DNA of 64,000 nucleotides from an uncultured Candidatus Sumerlaeota bacterium (GCA_964473105.1 CAYYNQ010000048.1:97709-161708); one strand, 5' to 3'. Numbered from the stretch's first letter, positions 2,393 through 53,024 are shown. Notes: generated from the sequence alone by a model not told the origin. Translations and numbers: made by a program.

Positions 2393-2510
2393 CCCCGGAA
2401 AATAAGCCGCCGTCCACCAAGCCAGTTTCTCTTAAAGCCCCGGATTTAAACCCATCTACCATACGGGCCAAACATAACTTGATATTTAACCCCGGAATAT
2501 TCATCAATGA

Positions 2511-3458
2511 ATGTATGGTTACCGAGTTTACAAGCTGCTCCGGATGGATCGATTTCCTATGACCTCTGCCCTAACCCGGATCCAACTAGATTCCTTGGAG
2601 CATGTTAGCTCCGGAAAGGTGCGGGAGATCTACGGCTGCGACCAAGATGTGCTATTGGTCGCCTCGGACAGGATCAGCGCCTTCGATGTTGTATTCGACC
2701 AGGGAATCCCCCATAAGGGGCGTGTCCTGACGCAGCTGGCCGCATTTTGGTTTGAGAAGACATTAGATATTGCTGCCAACCACATGGTCACAATCGATTT
2801 CGACATGATGCCCCCTGAGGTTAGGATCTGTCCCGAACTCGAGGGACGTACCACCCTTTGTCGAAAGGCCGAGGTATTGCCCGTCGAATGTGTCGTTCGA
2901 GGATATCTGGAAGGCTCGGCCTGGAAGGAATATCAGAAAAACGGGTCGGTTTGCGGGGTTCGTCTGCCCGAAGGACTACAACGCTACTCCAAACTGCCCG
3001 AGCCAATCTTCACCCCTGCCACCAAGGCTGAACAGGGTGAACATGACCAAAATATAGACTTTCGACGGTGTACTCAGATTATCGGCGCTCGCCGTGCCAC
3101 CCAGGTTCGAGACTTGAGTCTGCAGCTTTATCAGGCTGCCTGCCGTTATCTCGAAACCAGGGACATCATCATTGCGGACACCAAATTCGAGTTCGGGTTG
3201 GCTGATGGAGAACTTATTATTATTGATGAGATGCTGACACCGGATTCCTCCCGGTTCTGGATCGGAGGGTCATTTGAATCGTCGGGCGAACCGGTTAGTT
3301 TCGATAAGCAGTATGTCCGGAACTATCTCGAAACCCTGGACTGGAACAAGTCACCGCCCGCACCCATTTTACCGGAGGAAGTCATTTTCCAAACATCCCA
3401 ACGTTATCTTGACATATACCGGAAAATAACCGGCCATTTGCCTGGGTGGATTTCCTGA
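2511..3458 (+). CDS. purC: Phosphoribosylaminoimidazole-succinocarboxamide synthase (SAICAR synthetase), long form
   Basis: Contains GKVREIY, VASDRISAFDVV and IIADTKFEFG motifs and is ~300 aa like the eukaryote-type long PurC. The start is ambiguous: ATG at 2511, 2544 or 2559. Confidence 0.85.
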   Translation: MYGYRVYKLLRMDRFPMTSALTRIQLDSLEHVSSGKVREIYGCDQDVLLVASDRISAFDVVFDQGIPHKGRVLTQLAAFWFEKTLDIAANHMVTIDFDMMPPEVRICPELEGRTTLCRKAEVLPVECVVRGYLEGSAWKEYQKNGSVCGVRLPEGLQRYSKLPEPIFTPATKAEQGEHDQNIDFRRCTQIIGARRATQVRDLSLQLYQAACRYLETRDIIIADTKFEFGLADGELIIIDEMLTPDSSRFWIGGSFESSGEPVSFDKQYVRNYLETLDWNKSPPAPILPEEVIFQTSQRYLDIYRKITGHLPGWIS

Positions 3459-5699: not shown

Positions 5700-7529
5700 A
5701 TGTCTTGCGGCTCCACCGGCACCTCGACCGTAATGAACAGTCAAGAATGCAATGTCTCCGTTAACGATGTCGTACTATCGATCGCGACAGCAAACGGTAC
5801 CGGAAGCCAGTCAGCAAACCTGATCCTGACCCGTTCCATTTTCCAAATGGGTGTCCCGGTCAGCGCAAAGAATCTCTTCCCCTCAAACATTCAAGGGCTT
5901 CCGACCTGGTTCTCCATCCGTGCCAACCGCAATGGCTACACCGCCCGCCGCCCGGATGTCGATATTATGGTCTGCATGAACTCGCGCTCGGTCGAGGAGG
6001 ACCTGAGAGGATTAAATCCCGGAGCGGTCGTCCTGATTCGGGACGACCTGATGGGACACGTAGCCCGGGACGACCTAAAGGTCATCCCCGCACCCTTCAG
6101 TTCGATGGTCAAGGAAGTCTGCCCGCTGGCCAAGATTCGAAAACTTGTCATGAACATGCTGTATGTCGGCGTGCTTGCATATTTTCTCAAACTCGACCTC
6201 GATGAAGTCAACCGGGCGATCGATAGGCAGTTTTCCGGAAAGAAGAGTGCCGCCGACCTGAACCGTTCTGCAATGAAAGCCGCGTGGAAGTGGGCCAACG
6301 AAAACGTGGACCTGCAATGTCCCCACCGCATTGAAAGGATGGACGGGACCGACGACAAAATCCTAATCGAAGGGAACCAAGCCGCCGCGCTCGGGGCTGT
6401 CTGGGGAGGCATGACTCTGATGGCTTGGTATCCGATCACACCCAGCAGTTCGCTTGCGGAGGCAGCCATCGATTACCTTAAGACCTATCGACATGACCCG
6501 AAAACGGGCAAAGCAACATATGCGGTCGTTCAGGCCGAGGATGAACTGGCTGCATTCAGCATGGTGGTGGGGGGAGGCTGGGCTGGGGCTCGTTCTATGA
6601 CCACTACAGCAGGGCCCGGGATATCACTTATGGCTGAACTTGCTGGACTTTCATATTTTGCGGAAATTCCGACCGTCATTGTTGATGTCCAGAGAATGGG
6701 CCCGTCAACCGGGCTTCCGACCCGGACCTGCCAAGGTGACATCCTGAAGGCTTATTATCTTTCCCACGGGGACTGCCGCCATATCTGCCTGATTCCCGGA
6801 AACGCCCGCGAATGTTTCGAGATGATGGCAGAGTCATTTAATCTGGCGGAGAGATTCCAGACTCTGGTCTTCATGCTCAGCGACCTAGACCTTGGCATGA
6901 ACCTCTGGATGAGCCCGCGCTTCGATCCAGTCAAAAAACCGATCGATCGCGGCAAGGTCCTAAGCGCAAGTGACCTTGAAAAGCTGGATGTTTTCAATCG
7001 GTATGAGGATATTGACGGTGATGGAATTCCCTATCGGACACTACCCGGCACACCACATCCATCGGCCGCCTATTTCACCCGTGGCACAGGCCATTCCACG
7101 GCTGCGATGTATTCGGAAAACCCAGAGGATTGGAAGGCGAACATGGACCGGCTCAATTGCAAGTTTGAAACGGCACGCAAAGAGCTTCCGGAGCCAATCT
7201 GTTTGACGCATGAAAACCCGCACATCGGAATCATCGCCTATGGATCATCCGACCCGGCGGTCATCGAGGCCCTGGATGTCCTGAATCAGCAATATGATAT
7301 TACCGCGGATTACATGCGGGTTCGGGCATTACCCGTCCACCAGCATGTTTATGAATTCATCAGGAAACATGAGCGAGTTTTTCTCGTTGAACAAAATCGC
7401 GATTCGCAGTTGCATAGTATCATGTCCAGCGAGGAACCGAATCTCATGACAGACGTGTGTGCTATCCTACATTACGATGGCATGTCGATTGACGCCGCCA
7501 CCATTGTCCGCCAGATTCTAGAAAGCTGA
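5700..7529 (+). CDS. korA: 2-oxoglutarate (2-oxoacid):ferredoxin oxidoreductase, alpha subunit with N-terminal gamma domain
   Basis: An N-terminal gamma-like domain (IATANGTGSQSANLIL) is followed by a pyruvate/2-oxoacid oxidoreductase alpha domain (GNQAAALGAVWGG..., TTAGPGISLM). The ATG at 5700 has an AAAGG RBS; the track ORF begins at TTG 5694. Confidence 0.85.
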   Translation: MSCGSTGTSTVMNSQECNVSVNDVVLSIATANGTGSQSANLILTRSIFQMGVPVSAKNLFPSNIQGLPTWFSIRANRNGYTARRPDVDIMVCMNSRSVEEDLRGLNPGAVVLIRDDLMGHVARDDLKVIPAPFSSMVKEVCPLAKIRKLVMNMLYVGVLAYFLKLDLDEVNRAIDRQFSGKKSAADLNRSAMKAAWKWANENVDLQCPHRIERMDGTDDKILIEGNQAAALGAVWGGMTLMAWYPITPSSSLAEAAIDYLKTYRHDPKTGKATYAVVQAEDELAAFSMVVGGGWAGARSMTTTAGPGISLMAELAGLSYFAEIPTVIVDVQRMGPSTGLPTRTCQGDILKAYYLSHGDCRHICLIPGNARECFEMMAESFNLAERFQTLVFMLSDLDLGMNLWMSPRFDPVKKPIDRGKVLSASDLEKLDVFNRYEDIDGDGIPYRTLPGTPHPSAAYFTRGTGHSTAAMYSENPEDWKANMDRLNCKFETARKELPEPICLTHENPHIGIIAYGSSDPAVIEALDVLNQQYDITADYMRVRALPVHQHVYEFIRKHERVFLVEQNRDSQLHSIMSSEEPNLMTDVCAILHYDGMSIDAATIVRQILES

Positions 7530-7560
7530 CTCGATCACAAACCGCCGGGAATTGATTCGA

Positions 7561-8607
7561 ATGACAAACCCCTCCACCACTAAAGCCGCACCCAAGCTCA
7601 ACCGTCTTGGCCGATCTAAGGCCGATTACAAGGGTAGACCCTCTACACTTTGTAAAGGCTGCGGTCATGATTCGATCACGAGCCAGCTAATCCAGGCCTT
7701 CTGGGAGGCGGATATTGACCCTTGGCAGGTCGCCAAAATGAGCGGAATCGGTTGCTCCAGTAAAACAACCGCCTATTTCCTCGATGAATCACATGGATTC
7801 AACAGTGTTCACGGACGGATGGCACCAATATCCACAGGAGCTTACCTCGCCAACCATAATTTGGTCTATATCGGCGTGAGCGGAGACGGCGACAGCGCAT
7901 CGATAGGGCTGGGAAATTTCCTGCACATGGTACGACGGCATGTCCCGATGATCTATATCATCGAGAACAACGGTGTTTACGGCCTCACCAAAGGCCAGTT
8001 CTCTGCAACCGCTGACAAGGGATCACTCAGCAAGGGAGGCGTCATCAATCAAAGTGAACCCATTGATTGCTGTGCTCTGGCTATCCAAATGGGATGCGAA
8101 TACGTCGCCCGTACGTTTTCAGGAGACTTCAAACAACTTGGCCCACTGATCAAGGGAGCCCTCAGCCATACCGGAACCGCGTTGATCGATATCGTCTCAC
8201 CCTGTATTACATTCAATAACCATGAAGGCTCGACAAAAAGCCTGGCTTATGCCAAGTCCCATGAGGAGCAACTGCATGAGATCGGGTTCGTCCCCCAACA
8301 TGAACCCATCACCGCAGATTATGATGCAGGTGAGATCATCAAGATCGACCTGCCCGACGGGTCATCAATTCTATTGAAAAAACTGGACAGGAACCACAAT
8401 CCCGCAAACAAGCTTAAGGCCCTAAACCTACTGATGGAAGCGTCTGAAAGCCAGTTATTCCTAACCGGCCTGATTTATTGTCGATCCGATACAAATCCCA
8501 TCGAGGACCAGTTAAATCTGGTCGATGAATCCTTGGCTACGCTACCTGAATCCATGCTCCGTCCCCCACCTGAAAAGCTGAGGGAGGTCATGGATTCCCT
8601 GTCCTGA
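7561..8607 (+). CDS. korB: 2-oxoglutarate (2-oxoacid):ferredoxin oxidoreductase, beta subunit (TPP-binding)
   Basis: Has the CxGCGH motif (LCKGCGHDSI) and a TPP-binding GDG...N segment (GVSGDGDSASIG...ENNGVYGLT). It lies 22-30 nt downstream of korA. Confidence 0.85.
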   Translation: MTNPSTTKAAPKLNRLGRSKADYKGRPSTLCKGCGHDSITSQLIQAFWEADIDPWQVAKMSGIGCSSKTTAYFLDESHGFNSVHGRMAPISTGAYLANHNLVYIGVSGDGDSASIGLGNFLHMVRRHVPMIYIIENNGVYGLTKGQFSATADKGSLSKGGVINQSEPIDCCALAIQMGCEYVARTFSGDFKQLGPLIKGALSHTGTALIDIVSPCITFNNHEGSTKSLAYAKSHEEQLHEIGFVPQHEPITADYDAGEIIKIDLPDGSSILLKKLDRNHNPANKLKALNLLMEASESQLFLTGLIYCRSDTNPIEDQLNLVDESLATLPESMLRPPPEKLREVMDSLS

Positions 8608-8760
8608 ACGACCTCTGATGAATCCCGCGGAGACCTAATTAGTTCCCCTTATCAATCGGGCAGAGAGAGCCTTCAGAGGATCTGAACCGTCTTAGCATTT
8701 AAACCCGTTACACAGCATACCAAGTAAGGGGCTGCCTTTTACTGAAGTCTGTAGAAGGGA

Positions 8761-10014
8761 TCAGACATTTTCCAGATCCGGCTGGATCTTTAGCACACCG
8801 AACCCATGACGGATCAACCTCCAACGGATAAATATCGCGCCAATCGTCGCACAACCCATGATGAAGGCCGCAATCCAAAAGGGCCAGTTGGGCCCCAAAA
8901 GATCGTAAAATATCCCGCCACCGAGAATCGGGCCCAACAACCGCGCCAGGGCGGAACCGGACTGGCTGGTTCCCAGCACGTTTCCCTGTTCATGCTCACC
9001 CGCACATCTCGATATCAGTGACATCAGACAGGGCGACGCCATCCCGTGCCCGACCGAAAGCACTGCAAGCGGCAGGTAAATCCACCCCGGATGGGCACAA
9101 GCCGGTAATATGGCCAAGCCTAGGCAAAGTACGGCCGAACCGACAATCATCCAGATTTGCTCCGGAATGAACTTCACCGCCTTGCGGACGACATAGCCTC
9201 CCACAAACGCAATCACCAGCCCGATAAAAATCATAAGCTTATAAATACCTGTGTTGCTGTGTCCCATCACCTGTTGCGCAAAAATTGAGAACACGCTCTC
9301 CATCATTGCAAAGGCAAACGTAATCACGAAGAAAAGCAGGATCAGCGGCCCGATCGCCGGGTGACGTAATATTTCAAGCATCTCCGATAGCGAAGCAAAC
9401 CGGCGAGTCTGTATCCGTCCCAACTTCTCCCTCGGCAATGATTCCGGCAAACGAAAATAAGCCGCAAGCAGGTTTAGTCCACAGATCACAGTCCCTAGAA
9501 TCCCAGGGCCGACATGGGCATAGTCTGCAGGCCTGGCTGATTCCCAAGCCCCAGACGACAACGCTCCCAACACCGGGCCAAGGGCGAAACCCAAACCAAA
9601 GGCCATGCCAATCAGCCCCATTCCCGCTGCGCGGTCCTTTTCCGGAGTGACGTCGGCAATATAAGCCTGAGCTGCGGTGATATTACCCCCACAAATCCCC
9701 GCTAGAACACGAGAAAACAACAGGAGCGGGAAACTTGTTGAGATCGTAAGGAGTAAATAGGAGAGCGTTGATCCTGCAAGGCTGAGTAGAATGATCGGCC
9801 GTCGACCACGTCGATCGGACAACCGACCCCAAAACGGCGCAAACAGCATCTGCATCAGCGAGTAGGATCCCATCAACAGCGCCATTGCGATACCGGGATG
9901 CTCAGGCCAGAATACCGAACCGGTCGGACCCAGAATTGGGATGATAAGCCCGAAACCGATCAGGTCGATCAGCACGGTGAAAAAAACGATTTTTTTATCC
10001 GCTGTTCTATTCAT
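8761..10014 (-). CDS. MFS transporter (TetA/multidrug-efflux-like)
   Basis: 12-TM profile with MFS motif A (GRLSDRRGRRP). The ATG at 10014 is preferred over the GTG at 10020 that the ORF track uses. Confidence 0.8.
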   Translation of the reverse strand: MNRTADKKIVFFTVLIDLIGFGLIIPILGPTGSVFWPEHPGIAMALLMGSYSLMQMLFAPFWGRLSDRRGRRPIILLSLAGSTLSYLLLTISTSFPLLLFSRVLAGICGGNITAAQAYIADVTPEKDRAAGMGLIGMAFGLGFALGPVLGALSSGAWESARPADYAHVGPGILGTVICGLNLLAAYFRLPESLPREKLGRIQTRRFASLSEMLEILRHPAIGPLILLFFVITFAFAMMESVFSIFAQQVMGHSNTGIYKLMIFIGLVIAFVGGYVVRKAVKFIPEQIWMIVGSAVLCLGLAILPACAHPGWIYLPLAVLSVGHGMASPCLMSLISRCAGEHEQGNVLGTSQSGSALARLLGPILGGGIFYDLLGPNWPFWIAAFIMGCATIGAIFIRWRLIRHGFGVLKIQPDLENV

Positions 10015-47601: not shown

Positions 47602-49746
47602 TCAATTTCCGCTGGACCGCCTTAAATACTGATCGGATGGATGGGAAAATACAAGTATCGCCTTGCGGTTGGTCGGGATCTGAGAACCCGGCTTAGGTTG
47701 CTGACTTACCAAGATTCCGGATCCCAGCATCTGAGATTGAATCCCCATACGGTCCAACAGCTGGAAAACTTCAACCATGGTTTTTCCCCGACAATCGGGC
47801 ATGGTTTTGACAACAATCGGGGATTGATCCTCCAAATTCTCGGGCAATGCCGGCAGCAGCATTTCATCGGGTATGGAAACCTGTGCTTCGGTCCGGATGT
47901 CACTCCATTCCGCCCCAATATCCTCAACATGAATCTGATCTGAAAGGTGGGCCATCCGCCAAACATCCACATCAGAAGGCTGTATTCCCAAAACGTGAAC
48001 CGCAGCCTTGGCGATCTCACGAAACACAGGGACAGCCACCTTACTGGCATAATAACTGGTTTGGGGGTCATCAAGATACACGAAGATGGCTAACTGAGGA
48101 TCGTTGAGTGGCAGCAGCCCAGCAAATGAGGAGTAATATTGTCTTCGCTCATCATCCCCGCGTTTACGCAGTTGTTTCCGGGCAGTCCCAGTCTTCCCAC
48201 CGACGCGGTATCCGGGCAGCCTCGCCTTCTTTCCGGTCCCTTCCTCAACAACCCGTTCAAGCAATTCGAGCATCTGCCGGCAGGTATTACTACCGGCAAC
48301 CCGTTCAATACGTACGGGTTCGATCGTCCGGATGGTCCTGCCTTGCATCGACTGGAGTTCGCTCACGAGATAGGGCTTCATCCTCCATCCATCATTACCG
48401 ATCGCAGCTAGCGCCTGCACAACCTGAATCGCAGTCAATGTTGTTTCATAACCGATCGCCAGCCAGTTTTGGGATATTCCCGACCAGCGGTCAACGGTCT
48501 TGAGAACACCACGACTTTCACCATTGAGTTCAATCCCTGTCTTTTCACCGAAGCCAAAACGTCTTAGACCATCATACTGGACGATGGGTTCCATGCGATT
48601 GGCAAGCATTGCCATGGCGATGTTGCTGGACTCGGCGAATGCTGTGTAAAATGGCACAACACCCAGATTATGACTGTCACGAAGTCGCTTGCCCTTGATC
48701 AATACGCTTCCTCCATGACAGTCTACCTGCTCGCTTGTGGACATCAGATCGTTATCCAGCATAATGGCCGTTGTAAAAACCTTCATAACCGACCCGATCT
48801 GGATGGGATGTGTCAGTGCCCTGTTGGTTCTTTGATGGCGTTCGGCCTTCCCGAAATCGTTTGGATCAAATCCCGGATCATTCGCCAGGGCAAGAATAGC
48901 TCCAGTCTTCACATCCATAACAACGGCCACCCCTCCCTCTGACCCAGTACTCTCTACCTGACGCGTGAGTGCCCGCTCCGTAAACATCTGTATCATCTCA
49001 TCAATAGTCAGGATTAATGTATGGCCGAAAGTGTCTTCGAGCACCTCACTTTCATTGGGCTTGAGGGGTTCACGGACAGAATCAACGGGACGTTTCGAAT
49101 CCCTGTACTCACCCCTGAGCCAGTCATCATAAATCAATTCCAGACCTTCGAGCCCTATGTTATCACCGCTGTCGTCAATCTTGGTGAACCCCAATACATG
49201 TGAGGCCAATCTACCGTTCGGATAGGATCGCTTGCTGTCGCGTTCATAAATCAAAACATTGGGAGGCAGGTCATAACGGGCCTCGATATCCTTGACTCGC
49301 TCACTAGTTTCCTCGGGGGCCTTGCGAATGAGGATATGCTGGCGCTTCTTGTCCAACATTTTCAGAACTTTCTCGGTATCAGAACCTGTTGCCGCGGCCA
49401 GTTCCCCACAAAGGGCAATGGGATCAAGCACCTGATCCGATCTGATTTTTCCGGAAAGCATTTTTTTTCCCTGCAATTTCAAATGCTTGTCGAGCATCCT
49501 GATGCTGAATATGATTTTTTCATTCAAGTAAGATGTTGCAAGCGGACTGCCCTTACGATCGAGTATATCTCCACGGCGAGGGTTGAGTACAAATTTCCGA
49601 CTCTGCTGGTTGCGGGCACGGGTCATAAAAACCTCGTGTTCGACAACCTGCAACTGGAACAACCGGATTTCAATGATAACAAATGTTACAAACGAAATGA
49701 TGACCATTAGGGCCATCCGGATTCGGTGTGTTTTGACAATGGTCAT
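47602..49746 (-). CDS. ftsI: Penicillin-binding protein FtsI/PBP3-like transpeptidase with C-terminal PASTA domain
   Basis: N-terminal TM (MALMVIISFVTFVIIEI), dimerisation domain, transpeptidase motifs (SVMK, SSN, KTGT) and a C-terminal PASTA fold (...DCRGKTMVEVFQLLDRMGIQS...GSGILVSQQPKPGSQI). The start is moved to the ATG at 49746 (AAGAGG RBS); the upstream 68 codons in the track ORF look non-coding. Confidence 0.85.
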   Translation of the reverse strand: MTIVKTHRIRMALMVIISFVTFVIIEIRLFQLQVVEHEVFMTRARNQQSRKFVLNPRRGDILDRKGSPLATSYLNEKIIFSIRMLDKHLKLQGKKMLSGKIRSDQVLDPIALCGELAAATGSDTEKVLKMLDKKRQHILIRKAPEETSERVKDIEARYDLPPNVLIYERDSKRSYPNGRLASHVLGFTKIDDSGDNIGLEGLELIYDDWLRGEYRDSKRPVDSVREPLKPNESEVLEDTFGHTLILTIDEMIQMFTERALTRQVESTGSEGGVAVVMDVKTGAILALANDPGFDPNDFGKAERHQRTNRALTHPIQIGSVMKVFTTAIMLDNDLMSTSEQVDCHGGSVLIKGKRLRDSHNLGVVPFYTAFAESSNIAMAMLANRMEPIVQYDGLRRFGFGEKTGIELNGESRGVLKTVDRWSGISQNWLAIGYETTLTAIQVVQALAAIGNDGWRMKPYLVSELQSMQGRTIRTIEPVRIERVAGSNTCRQMLELLERVVEEGTGKKARLPGYRVGGKTGTARKQLRKRGDDERRQYYSSFAGLLPLNDPQLAIFVYLDDPQTSYYASKVAVPVFREIAKAAVHVLGIQPSDVDVWRMAHLSDQIHVEDIGAEWSDIRTEAQVSIPDEMLLPALPENLEDQSPIVVKTMPDCRGKTMVEVFQLLDRMGIQSQMLGSGILVSQQPKPGSQIPTNRKAILVFSHPSDQYLRRSSGN

Positions 49747-50368
49747 GCCGACCTCTTGAACACCTTCGGAATCAGGTATCAGCCAGATCCACTCCGCTCC
49801 TGTGAATGGATTCCAATCTTCTTTGAAAACCCCCATGCAGGCTACGGGAAGAAGTGTCGCCAATATCGGGCAGGGGCCAGACATCGGCGACAATCCTTCC
49901 CTACCTGTCCACAAAATATTTACGGCATGACCCCATAACGGGGGCACCAAGATTGTGGACAGGGCGCCTACCTCACGGTTCCCGGTCCCTCAAAAGCCGG
50001 CCCTACGGCCTTCAACTTGGACCTGAGGGAGAACAATCGCGTATCAGCGGTCACATAGCCGGGCGATCCATATGAAAAAGAACGTATTTCAAAGGAACCT
50101 TACGGAAACGTCCGGTCTACACCTGATCATCAGCGGGAGGAGTCAACTGGACCAAATATACTGCCTCAACATACGAGCCTGATCAGGACCGACAACCGTG
50201 GAGTAAATTGTATGCCACGCTCGTTCGCGCGCGGCCTGAAAATCGTGTCCTGCCTCCCTTCCTAATCACATTTTATCCGGGGACAGATGAATTTTCCTGG
50301 AACAGTCGGAAAAATGCCCCTACTATCAAGGGACTTAGGTCGTAGATTTTACCTCTGTTCATCCACAC

Positions 50369-50827
50369 TCAATCCCCCGCTTCGGCCCGGCTAATCCAAC
50401 CCATCTGTTCACTCAGGTTCTGGAACCACTCCAGATGCCCGTGGTTATCGATACCGGATCGTTGCCTTCCGGAGTGCAGCGCATAACGCATGTAGGTTCT
50501 CCGGTCGAACTTTATGACCTGACGCCGGTCAGGAGCACAGGCTTCAAGTTTCAACTCATCGACGGCATAGTCATAAAGCCCGGAAGGATTCTGTAATGCC
50601 TCATTCTCATGACGTAATTCATTGATTGAGCTAAGTAGCAATTGCTGCTGGTCCTGAAGCGGCACCATCTCATTATTCATCCGCGTGATCTGAAACTGGA
50701 GATGGATATGGGCCATCCCAAACAAAAACATGCTGATGATCAACGAAGTGGTTCGGACAACCAGGCCAGGCGCCAGAAAAGCTTGTTTGGCCTGAGGATT
50801 TTGACGAACGGGTGATAACTTTGACAT
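50369..50827 (-). CDS. ftsL: Cell division protein FtsL-like (TM + coiled coil)
   Basis: Sits in the conserved dcw slot between rsmH and ftsI. It has a single TM (LIISMFLFGMAHI) followed by a leucine-rich coiled coil. The assignment is by position and architecture only. Confidence 0.55.
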   Translation of the reverse strand: MSKLSPVRQNPQAKQAFLAPGLVVRTTSLIISMFLFGMAHIHLQFQITRMNNEMVPLQDQQQLLLSSINELRHENEALQNPSGLYDYAVDELKLEACAPDRRQVIKFDRRTYMRYALHSGRQRSGIDNHGHLEWFQNLSEQMGWISRAEAGD

Positions 50828-50880: not shown

Positions 50881-51849
50881 TCATCCAGAAAACTTCACGA
50901 CCGCCCTCAACCGGGCGGAACGACTGCGCGGATTACGCTCAACTTCAACGGGGCCGGGCCGAACGACCTTTCGTGTCAGCAAACGAGCCGGGGGAGGCAC
51001 ATCAGGGTCCGGAAAAGGGCCAGGACTACGCAAAGGGGCCGTGATCTTCTTCATAAATTGTTTCACTCTCCGATCCTCCCCCGAATGAAACGAGATGACA
51101 GCCAACCTTCCACCTGGCCGGAGCGCCTCAAACGCATCCGGCAATACCCTCTCCAATGTCTCGTATTCCCGATTCACTTCAATTCTGAGGCTCATAAAGA
51201 CCCGGGTGGCTGGATGCGTGTTCGGAGGCCAGTGTCTCCGCGGTATTGCACCTGCCACGATTTCGCCCAATTGCTTGCCCGTCCTGATACGGCCGTCTAA
51301 ACGCGCCTCGATAATTTTCCTTGCAATACGCCGGCTCCAGCGCTCATCCGCATTCACATAAAATATCCCGGCAAGATCGTTTTCCGACCACTCGTTGACC
51401 ATTTTCTCGGCCGAAGGACCCACCTGCTCGGGATTGAGTTTCATGTCCAGTGCGATGTCACTATTCCAACTCAGGCCACGAGAAGGATCTAGAATTTGTG
51501 GTGTCGATGGCCCCAGATCGAGTAGGCATCCGTCTAGAAGGCCGTCATTAAGGTCGGCTAGTACGGTGGGAATTGCGACGGATAGATCAATATGATCGGA
51601 GGGTATCAGCGTGTATGAGGAGAGAGGGAAGCCGGCAGCCTCCAGGCGCTGCCTGGCTGCCGTCAGCATTTTCGGGTCCTTCTCCCACCCGATCAAGTGA
51701 CCATCGACACCAATCTTGTCAAGAATCCCGACTGCATGCCCCGCATGACCAAGGGTCAGGTCGGCGAAGACTTCGCCGAAGGCAGGAGCCAGAATCTTTA
51801 AAACCTCCTGTAGCAGGACAGGTTCATGAACAACCTGCTGTCCATTCAT
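50881..51849 (-). CDS. rsmH: 16S rRNA (cytosine1402-N4)-methyltransferase
   Basis: HEPVLLQEVL...DLTLGHAGH... SAM-MTase motifs. The start overlaps the mraZ stop. Confidence 0.9.
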   Translation of the reverse strand: MNGQQVVHEPVLLQEVLKILAPAFGEVFADLTLGHAGHAVGILDKIGVDGHLIGWEKDPKMLTAARQRLEAAGFPLSSYTLIPSDHIDLSVAIPTVLADLNDGLLDGCLLDLGPSTPQILDPSRGLSWNSDIALDMKLNPEQVGPSAEKMVNEWSENDLAGIFYVNADERWSRRIARKIIEARLDGRIRTGKQLGEIVAGAIPRRHWPPNTHPATRVFMSLRIEVNREYETLERVLPDAFEALRPGGRLAVISFHSGEDRRVKQFMKKITAPLRSPGPFPDPDVPPPARLLTRKVVRPGPVEVERNPRSRSARLRAVVKFSG

Positions 51850-52589
51850 TTATTTTCCTGTTGCGGGGTTCCCATTTGACTGAAACCGGGTGCAACCGGC
51901 GGAGTCGCCGGGCCAAATCCCTCCTGGCCCGAAGTCGTCATCATGTTCTGGGATGGCTGCGTAATAGTAGGCTGCACAGGCACCATCGGCATCATCATCG
52001 GCATCATCATCGGCTGAGCCGAATAACCACCCCATCCGCCCGGAAACTGACCCTGCGATGACTGTCGGGGTGTCCTTGCACCCGAATCCACAACTGGTTG
52101 TCCATCCGGCTGTTGAATCGGTGCTGCCCCGGCCGTTGCTTCCGTCTGCTGTTGCTGCTGACTCAGGCTGAACGCATTATTCAAGGCCTGATAATAGACT
52201 TGCTCATTATAAATCCGCATGTGGTCCATGCATCCGGAGACAACAACCTGCGTCTGTAACTCAATGCCACACAAATCCATCATCATCTGGTTCAACTTGA
52301 AACGATTCTGATTATCGAGCGCCATCGTATCCGCAATTGAGGTATTCATATTACGAACCATCATCTCGTAGGCGTTATGCTCGTCCATCCGGCTCCAGCG
52401 CTCGATCTCTTCCAGAAAATAGGGATAGGGCATAACCTTGATGGACCGGTCCGGAGTGATCATGACACCGACTGAATCGACCTGCTCCGGACACAGTTCT
52501 CGTAGGATACTCTTGTATTTTGAAGGCAAACCGACACGCCCCTTGCCGTCTACCTGCATCCTGAAGCTACCCATAAAGACTTGAGCCAT
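51846..52589 (-). CDS. mraZ: Transcriptional regulator MraZ with ~100-aa Q/P/M-rich low-complexity C-terminal extension
   Basis: The N-terminal ~150 aa hold the two MraZ DXXXR-type repeats (FRMQVDGKGRVGLPSKY...; NRFKLNQMMMDLCGI...). Residues ~150-247 are low-complexity (SQQQQQTEATAGAAPIQQP...MMMPMMMPMVPVQP...). Confidence 0.8.
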   Translation of the reverse strand: MAQVFMGSFRMQVDGKGRVGLPSKYKSILRELCPEQVDSVGVMITPDRSIKVMPYPYFLEEIERWSRMDEHNAYEMMVRNMNTSIADTMALDNQNRFKLNQMMMDLCGIELQTQVVVSGCMDHMRIYNEQVYYQALNNAFSLSQQQQQTEATAGAAPIQQPDGQPVVDSGARTPRQSSQGQFPGGWGGYSAQPMMMPMMMPMVPVQPTITQPSQNMMTTSGQEGFGPATPPVAPGFSQMGTPQQENK

Positions 52590-52809
52590 GACCTAGACCT
52601 TCCAAAAGAAGCGAATTATGAGACAAGTCTCCCCGTACCCTAGCCCTTAATCACCACCGAAAACCCCTTTTACACCACATATAGGGAAAATCAGGTTTAA
52701 GTAAACACCTTACTCCACAATTATGTCAAGAACTAAATTTACTCATTACAGTGCGTTAACCCCCGATATGAGTTGAGTAGAGCAGAAAACTGTAAAATAT
52801 TATAAGATT

Positions 52810-52827
52810 TATAATATCAATATTATA
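52810..52827. repeat. AT-rich inverted repeats (TATAATAT-CA-ATATTATA and overlapping ATATTATA-N6-TATAATAT) upstream of mraZ
   Basis: Seen in the sequence ~220-240 nt upstream of the mraZ start, in the dcw promoter region. Confidence 0.3.
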
Positions 52828-53024
52828 TAAATTTCTGTGGGAGGAGATTATTTAGGAAATCAACCTTTCAAGATCTCCGGGGATTCGCTCAATTAATCCG
52901 CTACATGTATAAAATCCGCCCGGGGGCGAGGGAGGGGTGATGAAGCCGGGCATGACAGATTCATCTCCATCATCAACCACAGGACGGCGAGGATATACGC
53001 AAACCGTGCGAAGGGGCTTATTTA

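Follow-up and report, generated by a model that had tools for sequence, protein, structure and literature searches.

A conserved structured RNA element very probably fills the gap between ftsL and ftsI in the division and cell wall cluster of Candidatus Sumerlaeota

The dcw cluster (division and cell wall) is the most conserved gene cluster in bacteria, and in model organisms its genes ftsL and ftsI abut or overlap. In an uncultured bacterium of the Candidatus Sumerlaeota, which are known only from metagenomes, a gap of 622 nucleotides (nt) separates the two genes, and the question raised by this locus is what the gap contains. The DNA analyzed (GCA_964473105.1 CAYYNQ010000048.1:97709-161708; 64,000 nt, referred to as the window and numbered from its first letter) carries the cluster in the order mraZ-rsmH-ftsL-gap-ftsI-murE-murF-mraY. 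An initial annotation, made from the sequence alone, had suggested that the gap holds a regulatory RNA or attenuator, or a decayed gene. We report here that a conserved structured RNA element very probably fills the gap. Further, we tentatively favor the reading that the element is a cis-acting, sense-strand intercistronic leader of the ftsI message, and give this whole statement, strand and cis action included, a probability of about 0.45.

The limits of the gap are set by the following two genes.

47602..49746, minus strand: ftsI, encoding a class B penicillin-binding protein (PBP) of 714 residues from the ATG at 49746.
50369..50827, minus strand: ftsL-like gene of 152 residues, taken from the open reading frame (ORF) list, with a weak Pfam FtsL match (E 0.08).

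The ftsL-like protein has one transmembrane helix and a coiled-coil-like region; its equivalents in relatives give weak or faint DivIC matches and keep the position between rsmH and ftsI. At the other edge, the ORF track lets ftsI begin at a TTG (49950) and thereby adds 68 codons. The true start is almost certainly the ATG at 49746, because an AGAGG Shine-Dalgarno sequence lies 7 nt upstream of it and a transmembrane helix follows it directly, because FtsI of the relative L002 (75% identical) begins at the equivalent ATG (MTIFKTHR), and because indels disrupt the reading frame in the window/L002 nucleotide alignment of the ~200 nt upstream. Therefore, the gap is 622 nt long (49747-50368), with the stop of the ftsL-like ORF at 50369 as its upstream edge. 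The initial annotation had judged the 68 extra codons to be non-coding, and the L002 start, the frame-breaking indels and the overlap of these codons with the three-way junction described below bear this out. Database calls of FtsI in the clade (L125, L003, L005 and the window gene) also run N-terminally into the RNA element: the NCBI call for the window gene (P0001, 744 residues) begins at 49836, and the 854-residue call of L125 begins at 3001, inside the three-way junction of that locus (2911-3005). Clade FtsI lengths of 882 and 854 residues are partly artifacts of such over-extension.

Consistent with the earlier statement that ~620 nt between the genes lack an ORF of at least 60 codons, the coding strand of the gap holds only ORFs of 28, 28 and 31 codons. 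When the window gap was translated in all six frames and the peptides were compared with the gaps of 15 relatives, no conserved small protein emerged: the matches were limited to L002 (79% identical), fell in several frames and on both strands, and had 35-60% amino acid identity, below the nucleotide identity. A small conserved ORF in the gap was rejected on these grounds.

The relatives are 15 distinct Candidatus Sumerlaeota-like loci, and their sources included a genome scan with a full-length FtsI alignment (mostly other phyla; three Sumerlaeota loci) and a metagenome scan with a clade-specific pedestal alignment, which added four loci. Of the relatives that carry a name, the nearest are Candidatus Sumerlaeota (protein P0024; loci L007-L009). 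The relatives share the gene order of the window, with ftsI between ftsL and murE, and a long ftsL-ftsI gap of ~370-1270 nt without a called gene was present in 15/15 loci. The gap measures 618 nt in L002, 764 in L003, 652 in L004, 827 in L005, 488 in L006, 642 in L125, 681 in L126/L088, 1270 in L127, 591 in L128, 656 in L129 and 614 in L130, and ~370-900 nt in L007, L008, L009, L089 and L090. By the same lower-bound measure, the median outgroup gap was 61 nt (76 loci, with many overlapping pairs), and the closest diderm outgroups (Acidobacteriota and Chlorobi) had gaps of -4 to +61 nt. Because the gap is found in every related locus and is short in outgroups, it is a trait of the phylum rather than an accident of the window genome. 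In the comparison of spacing, no relative had an annotated small gene at this position or a longer FtsI N terminus with conserved sequence, and the element is retained down to ~38-45% FtsI identity.

The element spans ~480-550 nt. On the sense strand it consists of block A, an interior domain closed by a long-range helix (P0) and a three-way junction, with the ftsI ribosome-binding site ~60-70 nt further on. An E-INS-i alignment of 14 gaps showed conserved blocks with variable stretches between them. The parts of the window copy, in sense-strand order, are as follows.

50196..50250, minus strand: block A, from the E-INS-i alignment of 14 gaps.
50177..50204, minus strand: P0 5' strand, ACTCCACGGTTGTCGGTCCTGATCAGGC, from RNAduplex and the minimum free energy (MFE) and centroid folds.
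49998..50176, minus strand: interior domain closed by P0, from composition and motif counts.
49970..49997, minus strand: P0 3' strand, GCTTTTGAGGGACCGGGAACCGTGAGGT, from RNAduplex and the MFE and centroid folds.
49837..49971, minus strand: three-way junction, from its MFE (-77.3 kcal/mol), covariation and a covariance-model hit.
49744..49768, minus strand: ftsI Shine-Dalgarno sequence and start, GTGTTCAAGAGGTCGGC ATG (AGAGG), positional homologue of the relatives' TGTCAAAGAAAA.

The evidence for the structure is strongest at the three-way junction. In its outer helix, P1 (49966-49971 paired with 49837-49842), the core CAGGC/GCCUG is conserved; P2 (49904-49963) is a hairpin whose length varies, and P3 is a long hairpin (49846-49901) with a conserved GGGG/CCCC base. 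Plain MAFFT alignment followed by RNAalifold returned zero pairs, with the variable hairpins misaligned, and was replaced by a hand-made structure-guided alignment of 11 sequences, padded with N to fix columns in MAFFT, in which 94.6% of cells were paired and 25/36 pairs showed compensatory changes. An Infernal alignment of 13 sequences, used as a cross-check, gave 90.8% paired cells and 28/36 compensatory pairs. The covariation score was 0.47 compared with 0.16-0.17 in shuffles (0/500 reached it with either alignment), and slid controls were 36-46% paired. Because both alignments favor the structure by construction, an independent test was made with a covariance model, R1, built from 11 sequences, with L129 and L130, which were fetched afterwards, held out. 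R1 detected both held-out loci (L129, E 5e-4; L130, E 3e-4), each time within the gap, in sense orientation and ~100-130 nt upstream of ftsI, and it hit the window at 49822-49986 with 77.7 bits. No match at E<1 was found in ~100 outgroup loci (~0.9 Mb), and there was no second copy in the window.

The long-range helix was examined by searching the 22 nt just upstream of P1 by RNAduplex against all upstream gap sequence. In 12/13 loci, both held-out loci included, the best partner was the tail of block A. The resulting duplex of 10-22 bp differs in sequence in each species (for example, CCACGGTTGTCGGTCC / GGACCGGGAACCGTG in the window and TCTCCGCGGATTTC / GGAATCCGAATGGAGA in L127) and closes a domain of 170-370 nt. 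Its energy was not always better than that of shuffles in GC-rich loci, and the evidence for P0 is its positional consistency. Unconstrained MFE and centroid folds of the 625-nt window gap contained both P0 and the junction. Block A itself reads ACAnATTT, then a species-variable hairpin, then TTCGAGTTTCTCC in the alignment; in the window the motif is followed by the hairpin at 50214-50235 and then ...TTTACTCC, the tail of which enters P0. Read by eye, without a formal count, the hairpin sequences differ by locus yet stay complementary. The last conserved block, downstream of the junction, comprises a short stretch (ACTCACC...) followed by the motif TGTCAAAGAAAA. The window homologue of this motif is GTGTTCAAGAGG (49757-49768), which carries the ftsI Shine-Dalgarno sequence and lies 69 nt from the junction end, inside the range of 51-69 nt found in relatives. 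The alternative homologue TTTTCAAAGAAGAT (49816-49829) was rejected, the junction spacing identifying GTGTTCAAGAGG.

The interior domain in most relatives is a C/U-rich tract of GYTCCN repeats (GTTCCC/GCTCCC, at irregular spacings of 5-37 nt). The repeats are weak in the window, with two hexamers compared with 1.2 expected, and the interiors of the window and L002 both have few repeats and are not C-rich. Apart from a mini hairpin at 50112-50125, the window interior has seven TCC (shuffle mean 3.2), two GGA and a C/G ratio of 0.90. The ratio is 1.3-1.9 in most relatives and 0.9-1.1 in the window, L002, L129 and L004, and a Rho-loading (C>G) tract was rejected as a universal feature because of these four.

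Several relatives depart from this plan in ways that we record here. In L007 (3113-3490), L009 (2919-3465) and L090 (785-1150), GYTCCN repeats lie inside a long-range helix that is followed by a single strong hairpin, and the closing helix of L009, TGATCAGGCCGG/CCGGCCTGATCA, resembles P1. The 591-nt gap of the more distant L128 (2410-3000; FtsI 39% identical, with a stronger MraZ Pfam match) is purine-rich on the sense strand; R1 did not detect a junction in it on either strand, and its content is either different or a strongly diverged form of the element. In L127, ~600 nt (2440-3000) lie between the RNA element and ftsI and contain tandem GGGGTCGGAGGATGCATCAGGG copies and palindromic hairpins; this stretch looks like an inserted small repeat element.

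We compared the gap with known RNA families and with other candidate identities. A scan of the window and of 14 relatives' loci at gathering scores (Rfam 15) returned no family, so that the covariance scan of 49747-50368 recommended in the initial annotation yielded no known RNA. At E<=10 the L088 gap gave nothing, and the window gap gave two chance-level plus-strand hits, far below gathering scores. No tRNA or tmRNA was found in the window, and GGTTCGAG in block A, which is T-loop-like, lacks a closing T-arm. MraZ boxes were also rejected: the clade boxes are GTGGG repeats, found upstream of mraZ in the window and seven relatives, and the gap repeats are irregularly spaced GYTCCN. No intrinsic terminator was conserved on either strand. 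One terminator-like feature lies near ftsL in the window.

50308..50334, minus strand: terminator-like hairpin and T-run (GTCCCTTGATAGTAGGGGC ATTTTTCC), 35 nt after the ftsL stop.

It was found by a consensus scan and by a separate scan, is not kept in relatives and is absent from L002. Full-text literature searches returned no paper linking Sumerlaeota with non-coding RNA and none on a structured element between ftsL and ftsI. Overall, the element is apparently undescribed, specific to Candidatus Sumerlaeota and without an Rfam family.

Which strand of the element functions, and how? The leader reading is favored because the ftsI-sense strand folds better. The window gap folded to -238 kcal/mol on the sense strand (z = -3.1, 0/20 shuffles as good) compared with -191 kcal/mol on the antisense strand (z = -1.5), a difference of 47 kcal/mol, and the junction was more stable on the sense strand in 11/13 loci and had the lower z-score there in 10/13. 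Counts of G-U pairs versus A-C oppositions were 22:10 in the junction and 23:8 in P0, the latter biased by the choice of strand. Further, no sense sigma-70-like promoter was found by a scan of the gaps of the window, L002, L088 and L125. Such a scan is meaningful here because the mraZ promoters of the clade are sigma-70-like (TTGACA-N16-18, overlapping GTGGG repeats). In L088, L125 and L130, the ftsI ATG lies only 13-20 nt past the last conserved motif. Without a promoter in the gap and with so little room after the motif, sense transcription must cross the element if ftsI is to be expressed. As in a riboswitch or leader, then, a conserved covarying structured domain lies upstream of a gene and on its strand, with a moderate preference for that strand.

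Under this reading, the operon transcript that begins at the sigma-70 promoter lying upstream of mraZ would run through the element, which would be the intercistronic leader of an ftsI-murE-murF-mraY message. With P0 closing the fold and the junction capping it before the ribosome-binding site, the element may set how much transcript or translation passes from ftsL to ftsI and the mur genes. A factor could bind the conserved helix cores, and in most lineages the unpaired C-rich, G-poor interior would be a possible entry site for Rho or an RNase. The analysis shows the gap and its conservation, the structure, and the lack of an ORF and of a sigma-70-like sense promoter within the gap; we infer the functional strand, the cis action and every one of these steps.

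Several observations weigh against this leader reading. The G-U to A-C ratio is only ~2-3:1 and comes from alignments and duplexes built on the sense strand, which makes the strand evidence moderate. An expression platform was not found: in the window, L002, L088 and L125 no hairpin with a U-run follows the junction ahead of ftsI, and sequestering of the Shine-Dalgarno sequence was not evident, without a systematic search. The strands of the junction are short and variable and its conserved bases lie in helices, an arrangement that is unusual for a small-molecule riboswitch. The window's own copy lacks the C-rich character of a Rho site (C/G 0.90). L007, L009 and L090 keep the repeats and the closing helix and have no junction detected by R1, so the family is heterogeneous. 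Finally, 8 of the 13 junction-bearing loci, both held-out loci included, carry on the antisense strand a perfect TTGACA, a 17-18-nt spacer and TAnnnT, with a T-rich stretch upstream. The relatives' motif TGTCAAAGAAAA is the reverse complement of this T-rich stretch and TTGACA, that is, of a -35 hexamer on the opposite strand. The antisense TTGACA hexamers, in sense coordinates, are as follows.

L004 4894-4899: antisense TTGACA.
L005 4802-4807: antisense TTGACA.
L088 2622-2627: antisense TTGACA.
L089 2373-2378: antisense TTGACA.
L125 3067-3072: antisense TTGACA.
L127 2403-2408: antisense TTGACA.
L129 1550-1555: antisense TTGACA.
L130 2977-2982: antisense TTGACA.

This sigma-70-like promoter stands at a fixed 51-69 nt from the junction and at a variable 13-600 nt from the ftsI ATG and therefore belongs with the RNA element, not with ftsI. 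Given this conserved promoter, most relatives probably produce an antisense RNA across the element, and it is to this RNA that the structure could belong.

This leads to the principal rival, an independent non-coding RNA gene opposite ftsI, transcribed from a sigma-70 promoter that is back-to-back with the ftsI start, the sense structure being its by-product. The start of such an RNA would lie ~30 nt ahead of the mirrored junction, and its GGA-rich interior (CAGGAGC, ACGGGAAC) would be closed by P0, a layout that would suit a protein-titrating sponge RNA of the CsrB/RsmZ kind. We regard this as a serious rival, though less probable than the leader. With a background of 0.016 per kb in all DNA examined, the promoter pattern is expected ~0.008 times at its site compared with the eight seen. 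The antisense interior is purine-rich: antisense GGA far outnumbers sense GGA, which is depleted, in 15/15 interior domains and exceeds the shuffle mean in 14/15 (L129 has 5 versus 5.9 expected), at densities of 1.8-7.7 per 100 nt (3.2-7.7 in 14/15). The GYTCCN repeats are strongly strand-specific, and the antisense junction still folds far better than shuffles (mean z -4.9). However, the promoter is absent from the window and from L002, where the structure is nevertheless kept; the antisense hexamers of the window are degenerate, a TTGAAC that lacks a TAnnnT 17-18 nt away, and the window interior has only 7 antisense GGA in 181 nt (3.2 expected). By energy, z-score and G-U counts, junction and P0 also point to the sense strand, the region near ftsL has no conserved antisense terminator, and Rfam returned no CsrB/Rsm-type hit on either strand. 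A CsrA gene was not found in the 64-kb window or the fetched loci, which is uninformative because whole genomes lay outside the search. A sense ftsI leader under the control of an antisense RNA encoded in cis, or of transcription that collides with it from the antisense promoter, with the antisense arm lost in the window lineage, would unite the sense structure, the conserved antisense promoter and the required sense read-through, and would tune the share of the mraZ-operon transcript that reaches ftsI and the mur genes. We consider control from both strands improbable; it is the least parsimonious proposal, and the ftsI ribosome-binding site would lie outside the antisense RNA.

Readings that need no RNA fared worse. 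The gap as a decayed gene or the remnant of a proline-rich linker, in which GYT-CCN would encode (Val/Ala)-Pro repeats and the helices would be incidental, draws on the variation of GYTCCN mostly at its sixth base, like a third codon position, and on short runs in one frame (6/8 in L090 and 5/6 in L007). Yet across a locus the hexamers occupy all three frames, none of the relatives has a called ORF there, peptide conservation is lacking in every frame, the region persists over deep divergence and shows compensatory pair changes, and the window copy is nearly without hexamers; we judge a decayed gene to be highly improbable. Equally slight in our estimate is the chance that a transcription factor, MraZ for example, binds the repeats as DNA to control an internal ftsI promoter. 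The repeats are direct and oriented, and MraZ is encoded in the same cluster, but the gap repeats differ from the GTGGG boxes over the mraZ promoter in sequence and in their spacing, no sense promoter was found, and DNA sites would not yield covarying long-range helices. Of the three possibilities raised in the initial annotation, a regulatory RNA fits best, the conserved covarying structure supporting the RNA and a regulatory role being proposed from it; an attenuator in the classic sense is not supported, no hairpin and U-run lying before ftsI in the window or relatives, and a decayed gene is unlikely in view of the absence of a conserved peptide and the retention of the element at low FtsI identity. 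On balance, and by a narrow preference, we regard the gap as an undescribed class of ~500-nt structured RNA, confined to Sumerlaeota and fixed between ftsL and ftsI, that would control the septal transpeptidase and the mur genes or, if antisense, would be a GGA-rich sponge RNA in the division cluster, and that has a dedicated antisense promoter in most lineages.

To our knowledge, few bacterial RNAs are both large and structured with long-range helices, and those described mostly have no assigned function. OLE, GOLLD, ROOL and raiA, all in Rfam, share with the element the size class of several hundred nt, covarying helices that include long-range ones, restriction to a lineage and a conserved gene neighborhood; none matched, and the interior of the present element is largely low-complexity C/U-rich sequence (GGA-rich in antisense) instead of an intricate conserved core. 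Read in antisense, the element shares with CsrB/RsmY/RsmZ the many GGA motifs (1.8-7.7 per 100 nt) and, in most relatives, its own sigma-70 promoter; unlike them, it lacks an Rfam hit and a terminator, its promoter is missing from the window, and the structure favors the other strand.

Two RNAs of dcw clusters invite comparison. UpsM is ~200 nt long and not known outside Rhodobacterales. In a study of UpsM and the dcw 5' untranslated region of Rhodobacter, it is reported to lie upstream of mraZ and to arise by partial termination, and its processing to affect dcw mRNA levels (PMC8266604). UpsM is likewise a structured non-coding RNA of the cluster on the path of the operon transcript, and differs in lying upstream of mraZ, whereas the present element lies between ftsL and ftsI, is ~500 nt long, has a long-range helix and a junction, and has no terminator. 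The two show no sequence or Rfam relationship. The mraW RNA motif is small and situated upstream of mraW/rsmH. It was found in Actinomycetales (RF01746; PMC2864571; Weinberg et al. 2010). This motif, too, is a candidate cis-regulatory RNA at a dcw gene, recognized in one lineage by comparative genomics; there was no Rfam hit to RF01746 here, and the two are unrelated in sequence and position.

The position of the element is fixed and can be interpreted, since the gene that follows encodes the essential septal transpeptidase. Should the element regulate ftsI, cell division would have a control point at the RNA level that is absent from model organisms because their ftsL and ftsI abut or overlap; if it is an antisense GGA-rich RNA, a global post-transcriptional regulator would lie within the dcw cluster. 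Under either reading the family is testable, with 13 junction-bearing examples and a working covariance model, and the FtsI gene calls of the clade are corrected.

The protein encoded downstream of the element was also examined, since the initial annotation had singled out its C terminus. Three domains were located.

~49084-49584, minus strand: PBP dimerization domain of FtsI (Pfam PF03717, E 3e-16).
~48010-48933, minus strand: transpeptidase domain of FtsI (Pfam PF00905, E 7e-64).
47644..47805, minus strand: single C-terminal PASTA domain of FtsI, from Pfam and profile matches.

The translation shows the SxxK (SVMK), SSN and KTG (KTGT) motifs and an N-terminal transmembrane anchor, so that the anchor, the pedestal and a transpeptidase with catalytic motifs that define class B PBPs are all present. 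The proposal that the protein ends in a PASTA fold was confirmed at the sequence level by the Pfam hidden Markov model and by profile matches to solved PASTA domains: in the 782-codon ORF, residues 716-769 gave 25.1 bits with PF03793 (cut-off 23.2), and the C-terminal 77 residues gave 30 bits when scanned alone. Pfam matched the domain in 18/18 clade FtsI proteins examined, and a profile of clade FtsI C termini matched the PASTA domains of S. aureus PBP1 (7o61, E 3.6e-11), PknB (2kui, E 1e-7) and PBP2x (2z2l, E 3e-4). The pedestal-transpeptidase-PASTA architecture is shared with PBP2x and S. aureus PBP1, which have two PASTA domains compared with the one in the window FtsI and come from a different phylum. 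The further claim that the domain is unusual for a diderm fails beyond Proteobacteria. About two thirds of the best 120 FtsI homologues listed carry PF03793, many of them from Acidobacteria, and the FtsI C termini of the Acidobacteriota, Thermoanaerobaculia, Myxococcales, Chlorobiales and Saprospiraceae (Bacteroidota) loci all scored above the PASTA cut-off, the Chlorobiales FtsI in the fetched loci with two PASTA domains. A one-PASTA FtsI like that of the window is common in Acidobacteriota and other non-proteobacterial phyla. The PASTA domain of this FtsI is thus real, yet ordinary.

The start of the operon and two other dcw loci gave further observations.

51846-52589, minus strand: mraZ.
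50881-51849: rsmH.
52700-52729, minus strand: sigma-70 promoter TTGACA-N18-TTTACT overlapping GTGGG-type MraZ boxes (TGTGGAG…).

The window MraZ has 247 residues, with a low-complexity Gln/Pro/Met-rich C-terminal extension of ~90 residues (…QQQQQTEATAGAAPIQQ… PMMMPMMMPMVPVQP…); the long form is also found in L002 (243 residues), and other relatives have 167-179 residues. Equivalents of the mraZ promoter are present in L002-L006, L125 and L126, with GGTGGGGAATTGTG boxes in relatives. From this sigma-70 promoter and its GTGGG boxes it follows that Sumerlaeota use an E. coli-like promoter and MraZ-box logic. The stretch 52550-52999 is AT-rich (GC 0.38-0.40). In L126, a small gene pair lies between murE and murF in the dcw cluster (6714-7297), one member of which matches Pfam ParE_toxin. 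In L003, nadA and a CNNM/CBS gene follow ftsI instead of murE (7487-9572), and the dcw cluster is broken there.

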